IMG/VR virus record: IMGVR_UViG_3300025864_000001
Coordinates: 1 to 64,000 of that record
Reading direction: 5' to 3' (one strand)
DNA from: a virus
DNA: 64,000 nt
The notes beneath the pieces were generated by a model. It made no database searches. It was not told the DNA's origin and worked only from the letters and a program-made list of their open reading frames with translations. Positions within the stretch are counted from its first letter, which is position 1, and each line of letters starts with the position of its first letter. Shown here one piece after another: positions 11,328-30,978 of this stretch. Both the position numbers and the translations under genes were made by a program.

Positions 11328-11941
11328 TTTTCTTTTACCTCCTGTGCTTTCTTTGCGTAGTCCTCTGGCCTTAATGCAAGTCGTTCATCCTCAACATAAC
11401 GCAGAATTTCATCCTTCAAATAAGGGTTATTGTCTTGGTTCAGTAATTCAAGTAAACTACTTTCAAGATCATCCCTGAGTTCTTTTGCTACACCTAATTT
11501 TTTGGTGTCACCTCCAATTATTTCGAGCATGAGGTTGTAATAACTGCTCTCGATTGCCACAAGATATGAGTACTTAAAACTCCGGTGCATACGTACAAAC
11601 TGCACGATCTTTTTATTCACAATATCATTTTTCCCTCTCAATATGTCTTCAATCGGGCTTTCAAAATTACCATCCTCGAGAGTTTTAAACTCCAGGTCAT
11701 GGACAATCTCTATTTTTCTTTTTAAGACATCATGGTATTTACCCCTGTAAGGACTCTTACTGTCGTACATCAGTATCACATAGCGATTTACCTTGTCATT
11801 GTCAATACCCTCTCCTGCACTTGCCTTAAACTCTCTTATTTTGCCCAATTCTTTAAAAAACTGCAATACAGTAGTCCCTTCCGGTATCTTATCTACATTG
11901 TACCGGAGTTGCTGATATTCACGTGGGTGAAATTGATTCAT
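11324..11941 (-). CDS. Hypothetical protein, possible terminase small subunit
   Basis: Helical 205-aa protein, first non-enzyme gene upstream of the glycan cluster and TerL; positional inference only. Confidence 0.3.
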   Translation of the reverse strand: MNQFHPREYQQLRYNVDKIPEGTTVLQFFKELGKIREFKASAGEGIDNDKVNRYVILMYDSKSPYRGKYHDVLKRKIEIVHDLEFKTLEDGNFESPIEDILRGKNDIVNKKIVQFVRMHRSFKYSYLVAIESSYYNLMLEIIGGDTKKLGVAKELRDDLESSLLELLNQDNNPYLKDEILRYVEDERLALRPEDYAKKAQEVKEK

Positions 11942-13221
11942 AAGAATAGCCCTATTTCGTTATAAACTCTTTTTTCTGCGATGTCAATGTACTTCGGATT
12001 AAGTTCTATCACTGCATAGTTTCGATTTAGTTTGCGTGATACTAATCCTGTGGTATTTGCTCCTCCAAATGGATCTAATACTAATCCTCCTTCGGGACAT
12101 CCTGCTTTAATACAATCAACTATTAATTCTTCAGGAAATGTTGCAAAGTGAGCTCCTTTAAATGGTTTTGTAGGTACATCCCAAACAGATCTCTTGTTTG
12201 CTTTACCATCGCCTATAAAATTGCCATTAGAATCATAATTTCCTGAATGCCCTGTAAGTGTTTGATCTCCCGTTCCTCTGTGTTTATATCCCTTAAATCC
12301 TTTCTCTCTTCCATTTCGATGAATAGTCCCATGAGATCCTTTTGCAGTATCCCATCCGTCAGGAGTTTTATACTGTTTTATAATTCTCCCTTTGTTATTA
12401 TCAGGGGGACGCCCATCTATTTCCCATGCGCCTGGACTCCCAATAGGAGCTCGTAAATCATCTGGGTAAATTATTGGTGTTTTTATAGCCTCCGCATCAT
12501 AATAATATTTCGATGATTTGCTTAATAGAAAAAAATATTCATGCGCTTTTGTCGGTCTGTCTGTTACTGATTCCGGCATTGGATTTCTTTTATACCAGAT
12601 ATTATCCATTCTTAAATACCAACCATCAGCACGTAACGCAAAGGCAAGCATCCATGGTATTCCGATCAAATCTTTAGGTTTTAAATCACTTCTTTTAAGA
12701 TTTCGTGTTATTCCTTCACTTGCATAACCTCTTTCTGTTCGTGGTTTACCAAAATTAGTTGCTGTCTCTGATTGACCACTTGCGCCACCGCCACCAAAAT
12801 AAGAATCTCCCATATTTACCCAAAGAGTGCCATCGTCCCTGAGTGTACGTTTTGCCTCTCTGAAAATATCTACAAGATGCTTTATGAATAGTTCAGGTGA
12901 TGGTTCTGATCCAAGTTCGCCTCTCCATGCACCACACTCTGAACAAAAGTCACTCTTAGTTGGTACGTCACGTCCAATTGTTCCAATATTTGTTAGTTGT
13001 TTTGTGTTTTGACCTTTATTATCATTACTTCTCCTTTGATATGATTTATCAACCCATTCATGTTGACAATTTTCATCACCATCCCAAATAACCGGAGTAG
13101 TGCCGTATGCTCTGAGTCCGTAATACGGAGGACTTGTAACAATCGTGTTGAATATTTTACTCTCGAATGTTTTTAGAACAGACAGAGCATGACCTTCGTA
13201 TATTTTGTTTACTTCAATCAT
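11938..13221 (-). CDS. DNA N4-cytosine/N6-adenine methyltransferase (beta class)
   Basis: TSPPY, HFATFP, VLDPFGG motifs; large insertions. Confidence 0.92.
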   Translation of the reverse strand: MIEVNKIYEGHALSVLKTFESKIFNTIVTSPPYYGLRAYGTTPVIWDGDENCQHEWVDKSYQRRSNDNKGQNTKQLTNIGTIGRDVPTKSDFCSECGAWRGELGSEPSPELFIKHLVDIFREAKRTLRDDGTLWVNMGDSYFGGGGASGQSETATNFGKPRTERGYASEGITRNLKRSDLKPKDLIGIPWMLAFALRADGWYLRMDNIWYKRNPMPESVTDRPTKAHEYFFLLSKSSKYYYDAEAIKTPIIYPDDLRAPIGSPGAWEIDGRPPDNNKGRIIKQYKTPDGWDTAKGSHGTIHRNGREKGFKGYKHRGTGDQTLTGHSGNYDSNGNFIGDGKANKRSVWDVPTKPFKGAHFATFPEELIVDCIKAGCPEGGLVLDPFGGANTTGLVSRKLNRNYAVIELNPKYIDIAEKRVYNEIGLFL

Positions 13222-13916: not shown

Positions 13917-14747
13917 TTAAACATCACACGCATCAGTACAATTACCCCATAGTGTCCCTTGATTCTCATTGAAAATTACTTCTCTCAATGGTTTTAGTGA
14001 GTCGTGCAGATATATTCTTGACTTAATCCCTTTCATACTTGAATCCCGTATAGCCTCATCGACCTGACAGGCAGTCTCAAAATCTTGAGGTTCTGTGGTT
14101 TTCAATCTAATCCAATTCTGATCTGATTGGAATGGACAAAAGGTACATGATGATTTTTCTGGGACCGGTAAATTTTTTTCTTTATACCAGTTTAAAACAT
14201 CATTTCGGGTCATTATCAAAGAATCTATTTTTTCGCATTTAGCATCTGCATAAATTTTATATCCACAGAATGGATAAACATTAATTTTCCATTTCTCCTG
14301 TGGAATCTTCATACGGTGAGCCTCATCTAAAGTTATTCCCTGATATATTTCAATCTTAGGATAACGACTACGCCCGGGCAATGCCAATATCTCTCTGATC
14401 TTTTTATTAACCATCGCTATCTTATACTCATTGGTACATTGACGACGAAGCATACCCTTTTCTCCATTATTCATCGTAAATGCAGGAATAGAAGCAAACC
14501 GATTACCTGATGAATTGGTCTGATTTAATAAGTCTTTTTTTAGATTTTTATAATCTGCCTTATAAAGCGGGATACCTTCATGCTCCTGTTCCCATTTTAA
14601 AAGCAATTCGTAATATACGAGTGTTCTTGTTTTTTCTCCTCCGGTATCTGAAAATACTGCATAGTCACATCTCTCTACCTCACCAAGAGAACTCATGTAA
14701 TATAATGCTGAACTTTGCACACCAACTCCCAAACTAATTATTTTCAT
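13917..14747 (-). CDS. PAPS-reductase-like / adenine nucleotide alpha-hydrolase family protein
   Basis: ISLGVGVQS PP-loop variant, DTGGE, RQCT..YKI, KSSCTFCPF. Confidence 0.75.
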   Translation of the reverse strand: MKIISLGVGVQSSALYYMSSLGEVERCDYAVFSDTGGEKTRTLVYYELLLKWEQEHEGIPLYKADYKNLKKDLLNQTNSSGNRFASIPAFTMNNGEKGMLRRQCTNEYKIAMVNKKIREILALPGRSRYPKIEIYQGITLDEAHRMKIPQEKWKINVYPFCGYKIYADAKCEKIDSLIMTRNDVLNWYKEKNLPVPEKSSCTFCPFQSDQNWIRLKTTEPQDFETACQVDEAIRDSSMKGIKSRIYLHDSLKPLREVIFNENQGTLWGNCTDACDV

Positions 14748-15100
14748 TTTGCCTCCTTTGCCTTATCTGCACGTCTCTGATAGTCTAAATTATTAACGCA
14801 TATCAACTGTCCCTCTACCTCAACAAACTTCACCAATCCCTCTCTTTCAAATTTAGCAAATTTTAGCATGGTGATGCGTTTGTCTTTTCTGGATGATAGT
14901 TTCCATGCAGGATACTCTATTGCACGAGTGAGATTTATTCTCTGCTTGTGGTAGGTGATCACAATGTAGTCTTTCGCAACATCGGTAGCCATAGTGCGTA
15001 ATGGTAGTGTTTTTGGTGGCTTTGCTGTGGGTTTCGTCCATATCCAGAGTTTAATCCACTTTAAGAAATTTTTTATTGCCTGTATTATCTGCTTTTTCAT
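14744..15100 (-). CDS. Hypothetical protein
   Basis: ORF overlapping the next gene by ATGA; own TAATTTTG box at 15106-15113. Confidence 0.6.
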   Translation of the reverse strand: MKKQIIQAIKNFLKWIKLWIWTKPTAKPPKTLPLRTMATDVAKDYIVITYHKQRINLTRAIEYPAWKLSSRKDKRITMLKFAKFEREGLVKFVEVEGQLICVNNLDYQRRADKAKEAK

Positions 15101-15110
15101 TGTGTCAAAA

Positions 15111-15536
15111 TTAAGAAATTTTCTTTAATACCTCAAAATCTATAATATCCATAATGCCTTTATTCTCAGGATGTGGATCATGTACTAATCCATTTTTCCA
15201 AACTACATAATGATTTATTATATCAACTCCACATGGACTTGACTCATTTCTACCTATAAATCTAGGACTCTTACCAAGTGCCAACACATAACCATTAGTA
15301 TCAGGAGAAGATAACATCCCTTCAGTAATACACCTAACTGGATATTGAATGTTTTCCCATCCCATTTCTGCCAGTTTGTTATCCATTTTAAGACAATATT
15401 CGCTCCATGATTCTCTAATAATGGGTATCGGCAAGTCTTCAATATCACACTCAATTACCGAAGCAATAGCAGCCCTCCAACAATCACCGTTTTGTTTCCC
15501 CGGTATATGAAAATATTTTTGATAAACTTTTTTCAT
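15111..15536 (-). CDS. Papain/C39-like fold hypothetical protein
   Basis: Q..GDCWRAAIAS ... HYVV ... HDPHP (Cys-His-Asp). Confidence 0.5.
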   Translation of the reverse strand: MKKVYQKYFHIPGKQNGDCWRAAIASVIECDIEDLPIPIIRESWSEYCLKMDNKLAEMGWENIQYPVRCITEGMLSSPDTNGYVLALGKSPRFIGRNESSPCGVDIINHYVVWKNGLVHDPHPENKGIMDIIDFEVLKKIS

Positions 15537-15559
15537 GCTATAAATGGATTAGAGAGGAG

Positions 15560-15641
15560 ATGCCAAACCCTCCTAAGTACTCGACAAAGGAGGGCATGCT
15601 ATGAAAAAAGAAAAGCAGAATTGTGCAATCGGCATTTGCAC
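15560..15641 (-). ncRNA. Candidate small RNA / structured leader with anti-AUGAAAAAAG seed
   Basis: TATCTTTG box at 15646-15653, 5' hairpin GTGCAA/TTGCAC, single-stranded TCTTTTTTCATAGC, 3' hairpin CCCTCCT/AGGAGGG. Confidence 0.5.
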
Positions 15642-15680
15642 CCGCCAAAGATAGTCTATTTTTATTTTCTGCTTTCATTT

Positions 15681-15929
15681 TTAATATTTTGGTGTATATC
15701 CGGTAATTGATAATTCAATGGTTCTGAGTTGAGGCAGGCTACATTTTAAAAACAATATACTATCGGGAGTGTTAATTGCAAATTCCCCAACATTTCTTTC
15801 ATTTGTTACAATAAGAGATATTTCATCCCCATCGGCTTCCATTATTTTTTTAGCAAAAGGAATAACGGGTTCATCTGTTTCAATAAATCCATATTCCAAT
15901 AATTCTTTTGATGTAATTGATTTGTCCAT
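15681..15929 (-). CDS. Hypothetical protein
   Basis: ORF in operon direction with A-rich leader. Confidence 0.6.
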   Translation of the reverse strand: MDKSITSKELLEYGFIETDEPVIPFAKKIMEADGDEISLIVTNERNVGEFAINTPDSILFLKCSLPQLRTIELSITGYTPKY

Positions 15930-15952
15930 TGTTTTTTAAGTTAGGTTGGTTA

Positions 15953-16985: not shown

Positions 16986-17033
16986 TGTTAATTTTTAATA
17001 TAAAAATAAAAGAAGCAGTCTTTTGGTTAATAA

Positions 17034-26065: not shown

Positions 26066-26145
26066 GTTTTTGCCCGTTACAAGTCGGGAATAATACAGAG
26101 TACAGGGGCGCAAGCCTCTGAAATGTAACCAAAAACATAGAAATT

Positions 26146-28985: not shown

Positions 28986-29013
28986 GTTTTAAAAATAGTT
29001 TATCTTTGTACCG

Positions 29014-29439
29014 ATGCAGACACAAGACACCATATCAAAAAAGAAGTTGGACCGGATAAAAATAATTTATAACGGGGACGTGGAGATAATAGATTTCCTT
29101 TCCGATCTGAAAAGCAGGGATGTGATAGCCGGACTACAAGACCTCATCCATGATAATAAAGGACTGCCCTGTGCCCTCCTCTTTAATTGTGGATGTGATG
29201 ATATTGTGGTAATGATACTCTATAAATCACCTTTTGCGTTCAATGATCCGGGTAATACTCTCATGCTTTATGCCGGAAATGAACTACATGAACTGATGGT
29301 GTACTTTAGACATCTTTTGGATAACACTTCAAAAGAGAAAAGCGTTATTAACCAAGCATTAACTGATATTGTGCAACTACTGTACCAGGAATGGAACAGA
29401 TTGCAAGACGATAATGTTCAGTCTGATTTTTTAGGCTGA
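29014..29439 (+). CDS. Hypothetical protein, probably leaderless
   Basis: TATCTTTG at 29001-29008, 5 nt before ATG. Confidence 0.6.
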   Translation: MQTQDTISKKKLDRIKIIYNGDVEIIDFLSDLKSRDVIAGLQDLIHDNKGLPCALLFNCGCDDIVVMILYKSPFAFNDPGNTLMLYAGNELHELMVYFRHLLDNTSKEKSVINQALTDIVQLLYQEWNRLQDDNVQSDFLG

Positions 29440-29442
29440 CAT

Positions 29443-29486
29443 AGAACGGGTGCCGGTTTGTGTGTTCCGGTGCCCTTTCTTTTTTT
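29443..29486 (+). terminator. Intrinsic terminator with TTTGTGTGTT loop
   Basis: AGAACGGGTGCCGG/CCGGTGCCCTTTCT stem plus T-tract. Confidence 0.75.
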
Positions 29487-29513
29487 CTAAACACTATAAT
29501 CAAATTAATTGTA

Positions 29514-30077
29514 ATGAAGATGATCACAGGAACTTTAATAACATGGTTTTGTTTTCTCACTTGCTCGGCACCTCCTCCTTCGGTGGCGCAGCAAAAAGAA
29601 AACATTGAATGGGTTAAAATAGAGATTAATCGCATAGACTGTGAAGAGCAGCTTGCACTCTTTATTGAACACTTGGGTATCCGTGAATCGGGTAATCGGT
29701 GGCAGATAATCAATGCAATCGGATGTATGGGTAAATTTCAATTTGCTCACAATACTCTTGAGTGTCTTGGTTACGGCTACATCACACCTCAGCAGTTCGC
29801 TCATAACCCTGAAATCTTCCCCGAAGCACTACAACGTCAGGTGTTGCTTGCCCTCTTTAAATCAAATGAAATAGCACTTAGAGACTATTTCTATTATTGC
29901 GGGCAGGAAATAGCAGGTGTGACAATAACCAGATCGGGAATGCTTGCTGCGGCTCATCTTGGAGGTGCCTATTCCGTAAAACTCTTTCTGCTTAGCATGG
30001 GGCATGTCAATAGACAAGACCTGAACCAGACATCAATAAAACACTACCTGAGCGAATTTGCCGGGTATAATATTTAA
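29514..30077 (+). CDS. Lysozyme-fold / lytic transglycosylase-like protein with N-terminal signal
   Basis: RESG....N..G.MGKFQF, LAAAHLGG. Confidence 0.75.
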   Translation: MKMITGTLITWFCFLTCSAPPPSVAQQKENIEWVKIEINRIDCEEQLALFIEHLGIRESGNRWQIINAIGCMGKFQFAHNTLECLGYGYITPQQFAHNPEIFPEALQRQVLLALFKSNEIALRDYFYYCGQEIAGVTITRSGMLAAAHLGGAYSVKLFLLSMGHVNRQDLNQTSIKHYLSEFAGYNI

Positions 30078-30087
30078 AAACACGACT

Positions 30088-30405
30088 ATGACAAAAGACA
30101 AGATTATTGAAAAACAGAAAGAACTGATTATCGTATTAACAACGGCCTTGGATTTCTTGGCAGATAACAATCTGATTAAAGAAAAAAAAAATAATAACGA
30201 TATTGATAATGAGCCTTTAATTGATTGCGTGAACAAGGCAGCCAAATTAAGAACTGAGGTTAAAGAACTTGAATCAGAACTTTTTAAAGAAAAAACTCAA
30301 TGCCCTTATAAAGGTGAAGAAGGTAATACATATGATCTATGTCCTTCATGGATCGCTTTTACAAATGGGTGTGCTGATTGTGTTAAATATCATAAAAATC
30401 AATAG
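30088..30405 (+). CDS. Hypothetical protein
   Basis: ORF track. Confidence 0.5.
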   Translation: MTKDKIIEKQKELIIVLTTALDFLADNNLIKEKKNNNDIDNEPLIDCVNKAAKLRTEVKELESELFKEKTQCPYKGEEGNTYDLCPSWIAFTNGCADCVKYHKNQ

Positions 30406-30407
30406 CT

Positions 30408-30551
30408 ATGAAAAAAGACAAAACACCTATTGAATTTGAAGATCCTGATCCCTTTGACGGGATGAAAGCTCTTGGATGTCTGCTTATCGGCTCGGTACTG
30501 ATCGCAGTAGCACTATTTCTGTTTGGAGTACTCATTAAAGTAATACAATGA
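30408..30551 (+). CDS. 47-aa single-TM protein
   Basis: MKKDKTPIEFEDPDPFDGMKALGCLLIGSVLIAVALFLFGVLIKVIQ (manual translation). Confidence 0.55.
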   Translation: MKKDKTPIEFEDPDPFDGMKALGCLLIGSVLIAVALFLFGVLIKVIQ

Positions 30552-30553
30552 CT

Positions 30554-30718
30554 ATGAAACTATTCTTAGCTATTTTAATGGGTGTCATCGCCATTATGTT
30601 CCTGTTCTTTGCCGGATTCGCAGAGGTGGTGGCAGTTGCCTTTGTTTACGTACTGCTCGCAATGTTGAGCATGCTCTTATCATTCTATTTTTACTTTGGT
30701 AATATCGAGTTTAAATGA
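30554..30718 (+). CDS. 54-aa two-TM protein
   Basis: MKLFLAILMGVIAIMFLFFAGFAEVVAVAFVYVLLAMLSMLLSFYFYFGNIEFK (manual translation). Confidence 0.55.
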   Translation: MKLFLAILMGVIAIMFLFFAGFAEVVAVAFVYVLLAMLSMLLSFYFYFGNIEFK

Positions 30719-30978
30719 GCAGACATTACGAGCCACGCCAAAAGAAAGTCATCCCTCCTGTAAGGCGTATGAAGATTATACGGATTGATGCCAGAACGGA
30801 AATTGAGGTACTTGCAAGCATCCCTGATGATGTGGCCAGAGAACGGTTCATCGCAAAACGAAATATGGGGCCACGTGCTCCGTTTGCCTCTCTATATCCT
30901 GCTGATGAAAAGCCGGAAGTGCCACAAGAAGAACTTGCATCAGTTGTAGATGATGAGGATTTACCTGAAACAGAATAA
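30715..30978 (+). CDS. Hypothetical protein
   Basis: IRIDARTEI motif; ATGA overlap. Confidence 0.65.
   Translation: MSRHYEPRQKKVIPPVRRMKIIRIDARTEIEVLASIPDDVARERFIAKRNMGPRAPFASLYPADEKPEVPQEELASVVDDEDLPETE

Follow-up and report, generated by a model that had tools for sequence, protein, structure and literature searches.

A conserved RNA cassette in the gap between two phage genes

What is encoded in the 144 nt that separate an 82-aa gene (15929..15681) from a 141-aa gene (15536..15111) of an environmental phage: a free small RNA, a leader that acts on the gene behind it, or a small protein? The window analyzed here is a stretch of 64,000 nt (positions 1 to 64,000 of IMG/VR record IMGVR_UViG_3300025864_000001) and belongs to a phage genome of 78.5 kb that has direct terminal repeats. 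The DNA of this phage is present in a peat metagenome run, which could be the source. All features of the element are on the minus strand, the one that encodes the neighboring genes. The gene start regions of the phage carry no Shine-Dalgarno sequences. Its closest whole relative was binned with a Prolixibacteraceae genome, and the host is likely to be a member of the Bacteroidota. A first-pass annotation had proposed that the gap specifies a small RNA (sRNA) with a seed antisense to AUG-AAA-AAA start regions, acting as a cis start-codon-sequestering leader, as a type I antitoxin-like RNA, or as a broad silencer of mRNAs beginning with MKK codons.

Inspection of the gap revealed a cassette of approximately 125 nt, comprised of a promoter box, a 5' hairpin (P2), a U-rich segment (segment B), a 3' hairpin (P3), and a tail (Table 1). 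All four parts described in the annotation (the box, the 5' hairpin, the unpaired seed, and the GC-rich 3' hairpin) were present. What had been missed is a 46-codon open reading frame that covers the cassette. The outer AUGCC/GGCAU pairs around P3 extend to 15560, and the sequence CUUUUUUCAU lies within segment B. The head of the cassette, block A, resembles the start of a 118-aa gene (AUGAAAAAGCAGA) located further downstream; three homologues have it unchanged, and the rest have a similar sequence.

Table 1. Features of the cassette and of its putative partners, in window coordinates.
Feature	Position	Strand	Remarks
Leader open reading frame	15538..15678	-	46 codons plus stop; fills the gap exactly
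Block A, AUGAAAGCAGAA, start of the leader frame	15667..15678	-	Complements segment B
Promoter-like motif AAAAATAG-NN-TATCTTTG	15646..15663	-	
Bacteroidota-type -7 box TAnnTTTG, here TATCTTTG	15653..15646	-	
Predicted transcription start	15641	-	First G of the 5' hairpin; 5 bases past the last G of the box (15646)
5' hairpin P2	15623..15641	-	GUGCAA-AUGCCGA-UUGCAC; 6-bp stem, loop AUGCCGA
Segment B, anti-start stretch	15595..15622	-	UUCUGC-U-run-CAUAG
Seed UCUUUUUUCAUAGC, unpaired, within segment B	15611..15598	-	
3' hairpin P3	15568..15594	-	GC-rich, CCCUCC...GGAGGG
Conserved tail UUUGGCAUCUC	15557..15567	-	Homology with relatives stops here
141-aa gene, phrog_5845	15111..15536	-	Function unknown; start AUGAAAAAAG at 15536..15527
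Full-consensus promoter TTTG-N20-TAATTTTG	15106..15137	-	5 nt before the ATG of the 118-aa gene (15100)
Candidate trans target	30405..30418	+	Start of the gene (30408-30551) for a 47-aa protein with one membrane helix

The cassette recurs in other gene contexts

The phage is nearly a singleton, and the first searches for relatives therefore gave nothing useful. Among GenBank phages, neither the 1.6-kb region at the DNA level nor the 118-aa gene at the protein level had a match, and pattern scans of IMG/VR returned chance matches only (L085-L087 and L095-L096) or none. The element was absent near relatives of the 141-aa gene and of the PAPS-reductase-like gene, as well as near relatives of the gene upstream of the L094 copy (80 loci). 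Models of the element found no match in 150 genomes from the family of the metagenome-assembled genome (MAG) that holds L094 (R2) or in 150 from its order (R3). Among the listed public runs containing the locus there was no RNA run.

Relatives were present on Logan contigs of peat and soil runs. One contig, from run X2, joins 15557 to 15101 and lacks the 141-aa gene while keeping the end of the cassette; another joins 15679 to 15932 and lacks the 82-aa gene. Full copies in other gene contexts were found on a metagenome contig (L088) and on a 72.7-kb MAG contig (L094). The covariance model from related phages that the annotation had suggested as a check was built, and it added L093, L092, and L083 at E values of 5e-11 to 5e-7. 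In all, the model recovered one copy in each of five other phage loci (E = 3e-30 to 5e-7), and the L083 copy is identical in L084 and L089. The element is present once in each of three whole genomes. The 141-aa gene is absent at this place in L088, L094, L092, L093, and the X2 contig, and by this comparison it appears to have been inserted between the cassette and the 118-aa gene in the window phage.

The surroundings of these copies vary. The space from the cassette to the 118-aa gene is hypervariable, with the 141-aa gene (15111-15536) in the window, a 31-aa membrane ORF in L088 (454-549), a 136-aa gene in L094 (6985-7395), and nothing in L092 and L093. At L083 (1971-2990), a 339-aa frame with an HNH_3 domain runs in frame through the element. 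The loci L089, L090, and L091 are one locus found three times, 72,083 bp apart, on contig C687J13896_1000012 (216 kb), which looks like an assembled concatemer of a phage genome of approximately 72 kb.

Both hairpins are supported by compensatory changes

The stems of P2 and P3 differ plainly in sequence between homologues, yet all of them pair. In the six-sequence alignment, five of the six pairs of P2 and all six pairs of P3 had changed on both sides, and every cell was paired in both stems. Taken together, 11 of the 12 pairs showed compensatory changes with 100% pairing, counts that come from six homologues only and from an alignment fitted to the model itself. When the pairing partners were slid as a control, 41 to 55% of cells were paired over all 22 pairs. 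The G-U pairs, three of which lie in P2, are compatible with the coding strand only. A variant of P2 on a Logan contig replaces an A-U pair with G-C and a C-G pair with U-G. At the nucleotide level, conservation was seen in the UGCCG core of the P2 loop, in UUCUGC, in the U-run with CAUAG, and in the tail; the UGCCG core is invariant even at a synonymous site. A plus-strand reading of the element was considered and rejected, as its 17-codon ORF is not conserved (7 codons in L094) and the G-U pairs favor the minus strand.

Segment B also can pair with block A. This helix (A:B) was 87% paired, with a duplex energy of -14.0 kcal/mol. Neither A:B nor the helix between segment B and the following start (B:start) showed any compensatory change in the six-sequence alignment, because both strands are simply conserved. 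The overall fold was only modestly better than that of shuffled sequences (z = -2.3 and -1.4), which we count against the leader reading set out below. A terminator scan did not flag P3, which is followed by no U-tract; the sequence after it, UUUGGCAU, has four U residues in eight.

Permissive Rfam scans of the element (in the window and in L094) gave chance-level matches only, with E values of at least 0.6. In a scan of the whole window against Rfam 15, a single hit passed its gathering threshold: a twister-P3 ribozyme at 26066-26136 on the plus strand (59.6 bits against a gathering score of 39.9), whose first base opens an 80-nt gap between plus-strand genes. With a twister in the genome, a self-cleaving ribozyme was considered for the cassette and set aside, as no family matched the element. 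A pseudoknot between the P2 loop AUGCCGA and the tail sequence UUGGCAU also was discarded; it fits three homologues, and the changes in L092 and L093 are unsupportive. On this comparative evidence, we regard the cassette as a real, conserved, and so far undescribed phage RNA element that is absent from Rfam.

A Bacteroidota-type promoter box is held at a fixed distance from P2

The consensus of the box is TAnnTTTG, and its last G corresponds to position -5 (PMC6847099). The box was kept in five of the six homologues, even where the reading frame differs: it reads TATCTTTG in four, TATATTTG in one, and TACCTTTA in the degenerate copy. The spacer between the box and P2 is variable in sequence and exactly 4 nt long in all six. 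Placing the last G of the box at -5 puts the predicted transcript start at the first G of the hairpin.

The longer motif, AAAAATAG-NN-TATCTTTG, recurs at 28991-29008 on the plus strand with all 16 specified bases matching (0.16 matches expected), 5 nt before the ATG of a 141-aa gene at 29014. Looser copies precede other genes, including the replication initiator. The motif also occurs at 16995 (minus strand), at genome position 76464 (minus strand), and in the relatives G001 and G152, and AAAAATAG-NN-TA..TTTG may represent one promoter class of these phages. More generally, TTTG-N18-22-TAnnTTTG was enriched, with 10 sites in the window versus 2.5 expected.

A second box, TAATTTTG, was located 4 to 5 nt before an ATG in L088, L094, L092, and L093 and before the 118-aa gene of the window; the TAATTTTG-N4-5-ATG spacing was found in five relatives. 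In L088, L094, and the window, a TTTG element lies 20 nt upstream of this box, and in the first two it coincides with the tail of the cassette. No TAATTTTG box was found before the 141-aa gene of the window. A promoter of this geometry predicts leaderless transcripts that would lack segment B.

Segment B is predicted to mask the start of the following gene

The seed pairs over 10 nt with AUGAAAAAAG, the start of the 141-aa gene, confirming what the annotation had reported. In fold predictions this start had a mean pairing probability of 0.96, ranking first among 116 rough gene calls (median, 0.45), and segment B accounted for pairing at approximately 0.9. The same calculation was extended to five loci, in which the predicted leader from a 15641-type start is 102 to 108 nt long. 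The start of the following gene was paired at 0.98, 0.96, 0.83, 0.74, and 0.68, mostly with segment B; the 90th percentile for the genes of the genome was 0.65. The following genes in these loci are the 141-aa gene, the 118-aa gene (twice), the 31-aa ORF, and the 136-aa gene. The seed core is kept in all six homologues, as are UUCUGC, the U-run, and CAUAG, which are read in two frames.

The 118-aa gene appears to be the ancestral partner. Duplexes of segment B with its start had energies of -16.4 (L092), -14.5 (L093), and -15.1 (L083) kcal/mol. In the two loci with the cassette directly before this gene, segment B complements its start, AUGAAAAAGCAGA or CUAUGAAGCAGAA, over 13 to 15 bp. The same start is found in the window at 15100, behind the inserted 141-aa gene. 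Segment B also complements the cassette head AUGAAAGCAGAA, itself a look-alike of the 118-aa gene start. When the head was left out of L093, the fold switched from A:B to B:start. In L092 the mask forms even with block A present, and an A/B/C switch is therefore not general.

These observations support the first of the three proposals in the annotation, a cis-acting leader that sequesters a start codon, with predicted pairing in five loci before four different downstream genes. In the form that we favor, and to which we give roughly even chances on these models, the cassette would be a start-codon-masking leader whose own reading frame is coupled to the masked gene. Two further findings weigh against it. 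Masking was weaker in L088 and L094 (0.55 and 0.50) when 160 nt of upstream context was included. Furthermore, the most stable duplex predicted for segment B in either genome with an intact element was with the start of a distant membrane-protein gene and not with the neighbor (-19.0 and -17.7 kcal/mol versus -12.0 and -8.4 kcal/mol).

The seed also matches the start of a distant membrane-protein gene

The distant site is the one noted in the annotation as a 14/14 match. It is present as described: the seed complements 30405-30418 of the plus strand at 14 of 14 positions (-19.0 kcal/mol), at the start of a gene encoding a 47-aa protein with one membrane helix. A possible, if doubtful, alternative to the masking leader, or a further role beside it, is built on this match. 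The cassette would give rise to a discrete trans-acting sRNA of approximately 85 to 95 nt, running from 15641 to past P3, which would repress the 47-aa gene in an opposite-strand operon 15 kb away, and pairing with the neighbor would be secondary. The anatomy fits an sRNA, with a promoter box, a hairpin at the predicted 5' end, a linear seed, and a stable 3' hairpin, and this anatomy is conserved. The discreteness of the RNA, which the annotation also had proposed, fared less well, since P3 lacks a U-tract and a maintained reading frame runs through it.

The 14/14 match alone proves little. Shuffled sequences gave an expectation of 0.06 matches to the 14-mer with up to one mismatch, a null that is too generous because the 14-mer was chosen after looking. 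Conversely, an exact complement of at least 14 nt occurs elsewhere in the genome for 2.7% of its 28-nt windows, and for 7.8% when the window contains a T6 run, so that a match of such length is not rare; the corresponding range in G001 is 8.6 to 14%. The annotation had asked whether the match might arise by chance, and the answer is divided: it is rare against shuffles, but matches of this kind are not rare among windows of real sequence.

In the relative G001, the orthologous membrane-protein gene starts with GACUAUGAAAAAAGA, and the G001 seed pairs with it over 15 bp, including one G-U pair, at -17.7 kcal/mol. Outside the locus, the start of this gene is the longest exact complement of the seed region in each of the two genomes with an intact element (14 nt here, 13 nt in G001), and its duplexes are the most stable of those with the candidate partners. 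The pair next to CUAUG is G:C in the window phage and A:U in G001, i.e., one flanking pair has changed on both sides. CAUAG is invariant in the six homologues, and its last two bases have no conserved cis partner. Finally, the promoter motif of the element also heads the gene cluster of the target. These points argue for the trans-acting sRNA. However, other reasons account for conservation of the 11-nt core on both sides, leaving only the flanks informative. An unconstrained genome-wide duplex scan with segment B singled out no start and was dominated by long G-U-rich duplexes, with at least 12 sites of lower energy in each genome. In G152 the complementarity to the start of the membrane-protein gene is not kept; its element is degenerate: the box is broken, the seed contains an insertion, and the element is fused in frame to an ORF with an HNH_3 domain. 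The broad silencing of MKK mRNAs suggested in the annotation found no support, as AUGAAAAAA is found at only approximately six gene starts per genome.

Known phage antisense RNAs blocking a start region are P22 sar and the C4 RNA of P1 and P7, the latter encoded on the same strand as its target. The cassette would resemble them as a short phage RNA with its own putative promoter or processing that complements the ribosome-loading region of a phage gene, and it shares with C4 the placement of element and cis target on one strand. It differs from both in that it has no homology to them, its seed lies in a linear linker instead of hairpin loops, and no Rfam match was found. Within the phylum there is a precedent for the sRNA in GibS of Bacteroides thetaiotaomicron, which pairs with translation initiation regions through a long single-stranded seed (PMC7366714). 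The cassette would be alike in being a Bacteroidota RNA with a seed that, by prediction, is directed against translation initiation regions. GibS, unlike the cassette, is chromosomal, has its seed at the 5' end, and ends in a Rho-independent terminator, and there is no sequence similarity between the two. The regulatory element described here is new, although its general kind is known, and it is not a proven free small RNA. Should the trans pairing be borne out, the cassette also would be an early example of a phage sRNA in this phylum, possibly aimed at a lysis-cluster gene.

The target gene lies in a plus-strand group (29460-30978) of genes for proteins of 205 aa (with a sub-threshold Transglycosylase-like match), 115 aa, 47 aa (one membrane helix), 56 aa (two membrane helices), and 87 aa, which is possibly a lysis cluster. 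In G001, a protein with a weak muramidase-like match is encoded directly before the small membrane proteins.

It also is conceivable, though we consider it unlikely, that segment B is shared by three look-alike starts (the decoy head, the cis neighbor, and the membrane protein in trans), with the partner set by promoter choice. The choice would lie between upstream read-through, the internal promoter at P2, and the leaderless promoter behind P3. If this were so, the cassette would be a phage anti-start riboregulator that times translation and serves as both leader and small RNA.

An open reading frame without a conserved peptide runs through the cassette

The leader frame begins 2 nt past the stop codon of the 82-aa gene, and its TAG is separated by 1 nt from the ATG of the 141-aa gene. 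All six homologues keep it open (46, 44, 39, 42, and 48 codons, and fused in one; overall size, 39 to 49 codons). Across them the frame contains no stop codons, compared with 17 and 14 in the other two frames; the chance of an open frame in a single shuffled copy is 8 to 10%. The leader starts 1 to 2 nt past the upstream stop, or in an ATGA overlap, behind four different upstream genes. It covers segment B and P3, and its stop codon either lies 1, 10, 19, or 10 nt ahead of the following ATG or overlaps with that ATG.

The peptide itself is not conserved, and the frame in which the conserved nucleotide blocks are read differs between homologues. CAUAG specifies His-Ser in two homologues and Ile-Val/Ala in four, the tail gives GFGIS in two and VWHL in a third, and the promoter box of L093 is read in another frame. 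The longest hydrophobic runs are 7 to 13 residues, too short to span a membrane. The leader carries two to four consecutive Phe codons because the U-run is needed for pairing with AAAAAA. An antitoxin-like RNA of type I, as the annotation had suggested, is not borne out here, since the overlapping ORF has neither a membrane-spanning stretch nor a conserved peptide. With the frame kept open and the peptide free to change, selection seems to act on being translated and not on the product.

We also considered whether the locus is an ordinary small protein gene encoding a functional peptide of 39 to 49 aa, with hairpins that are incidental or stabilize the mRNA, and judge this to be quite improbable. 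The uninterrupted frame would be expected of such a gene, as would the tight coupling of its ATG to the upstream stop and the closeness of its own stop to the next start; in addition, the block KNRLSL has two substitutions, both of them synonymous, and one indel measures 3 nt. However, the C-terminal halves are unrelated between homologues, and CAUAG, GUUUGGCAUCUC, and the TAnnTTTG box are read in different frames. Covariation of the stems costs amino acid changes, the UGCCG loop does not vary even where the change would be silent, and no hydrophobic stretch has the length of a membrane helix. The ORF was not called by the source gene callers, and the peptide had no homologue among 5.8 billion proteins or 1.84 billion representatives.

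A model for start-codon masking and its relation to known systems

To our knowledge, little has been reported for the Bacteroidota and their phages on how individual genes are switched on and off at the start of translation. The host phylum does not use Shine-Dalgarno sequences, and initiation relies on unstructured, A-rich start regions. Translation initiation in Bacteroidetes depends on RNA structure (PMC6847099).

The computations show that the cassette is conserved, that P2 and P3 covary, that the promoter box has a fixed spacing, and that the frame stays open, and they predict the masking; the transcript ends, the coupling, and the timing are what we infer. In the masking-leader model, the Bacteroidota-type box would set the transcript start at the base of P2. 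In transcripts that contain segment B, this segment would pair with the AUG-AAA region of the next gene (the 141-aa gene here, the 118-aa gene in the ancestral arrangement), forming a long-range helix that encloses P3 and hides the start codon. On transcripts reading through from upstream, the short leader frame would be translated through segment B and P3 to its end, 0 to 19 nt short of the next AUG. In doing so, the ribosomes would unwind the mask and pass to the next gene, resulting in translational coupling. Block A, as a look-alike of the target start, may serve as an alternative partner for segment B. A second promoter between segment B and the AUG, found in relatives and at the 118-aa gene here, would yield leaderless transcripts that escape the mask. 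The cassette moves as a unit while both of its flanks swap, which suggests that it may be a portable translational gate for new genes. It offers a compact, comparison-backed case of gene control in a phylum without Shine-Dalgarno sequences and would add a new phage RNA motif to Rfam.

The closest parallel is provided by the T4 genes e, soc, 49, and I-TevI, the starts of which are masked in early transcripts (PMC3014915). There, the AUG of long transcripts lies in a helix with an upstream segment, and a second promoter between the strands of the helix gives transcripts without the masking strand; a like geometry is predicted for the cassette, with TTTG-N20-TAATTTTG-N4-5-ATG between segment B and the start. 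The two systems are not related in sequence. Unlike the T4 helices, the cassette masks only the AUG-AAA region, there being no Shine-Dalgarno sequence; its helix spans approximately 70 nt and encloses a conserved hairpin, and its masking strand is overlapped by a predicted translated leader frame. A further difference is that the escape promoter of the window is at the 118-aa gene and not at the masked 141-aa gene.

Coupling through the ribosome-driven unwinding of a long-range helix is known from the coat and replicase genes of MS2 and from rpmI-rplT of Escherichia coli. There, as here, an upstream frame crosses the masking strand and ends beside the next start. The cassette differs in that this frame is a leader of 39 to 49 codons without a conserved peptide and in that the coupling is a prediction. 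In the leader-peptide attenuators ermC and pheA, a short leader frame likewise overlaps alternative pairings that govern the next start. In contrast to these, the Phe run of the cassette leader follows from its U-run, and we saw no sign of stalling or sensing.

Genes around the cassette

Almost every homologue has different flanking genes, the break in homology falls exactly at the ends of the cassette, and promoter boxes lie inside and just behind it. These features could suggest that the cassette is a module boundary (a terminator plus a promoter, as in the PeSL cassettes of T4) that is a recombination hotspot without any anti-start function, but we consider this very improbable, since there is one copy per genome, as opposed to the several copies between small genes in T4 that shuffling of the PeSL type requires, neither P2 nor P3 has a terminator-type U-tract, and this reading offers no explanation for the exceptional masking of the downstream start.

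Several further observations concern the neighborhood. The 82-aa gene has an 83%-identical relative on a 568-bp contig. The 118-aa and 231-aa genes are adjacent in L083, L088, and L093. At 13917-14747 and 11938-13221 of the window, both on the minus strand, are a PAPS-reductase-like gene (phrog_424), located between the 118-aa and 231-aa genes, and an N6/N4 DNA methylase, which follows.
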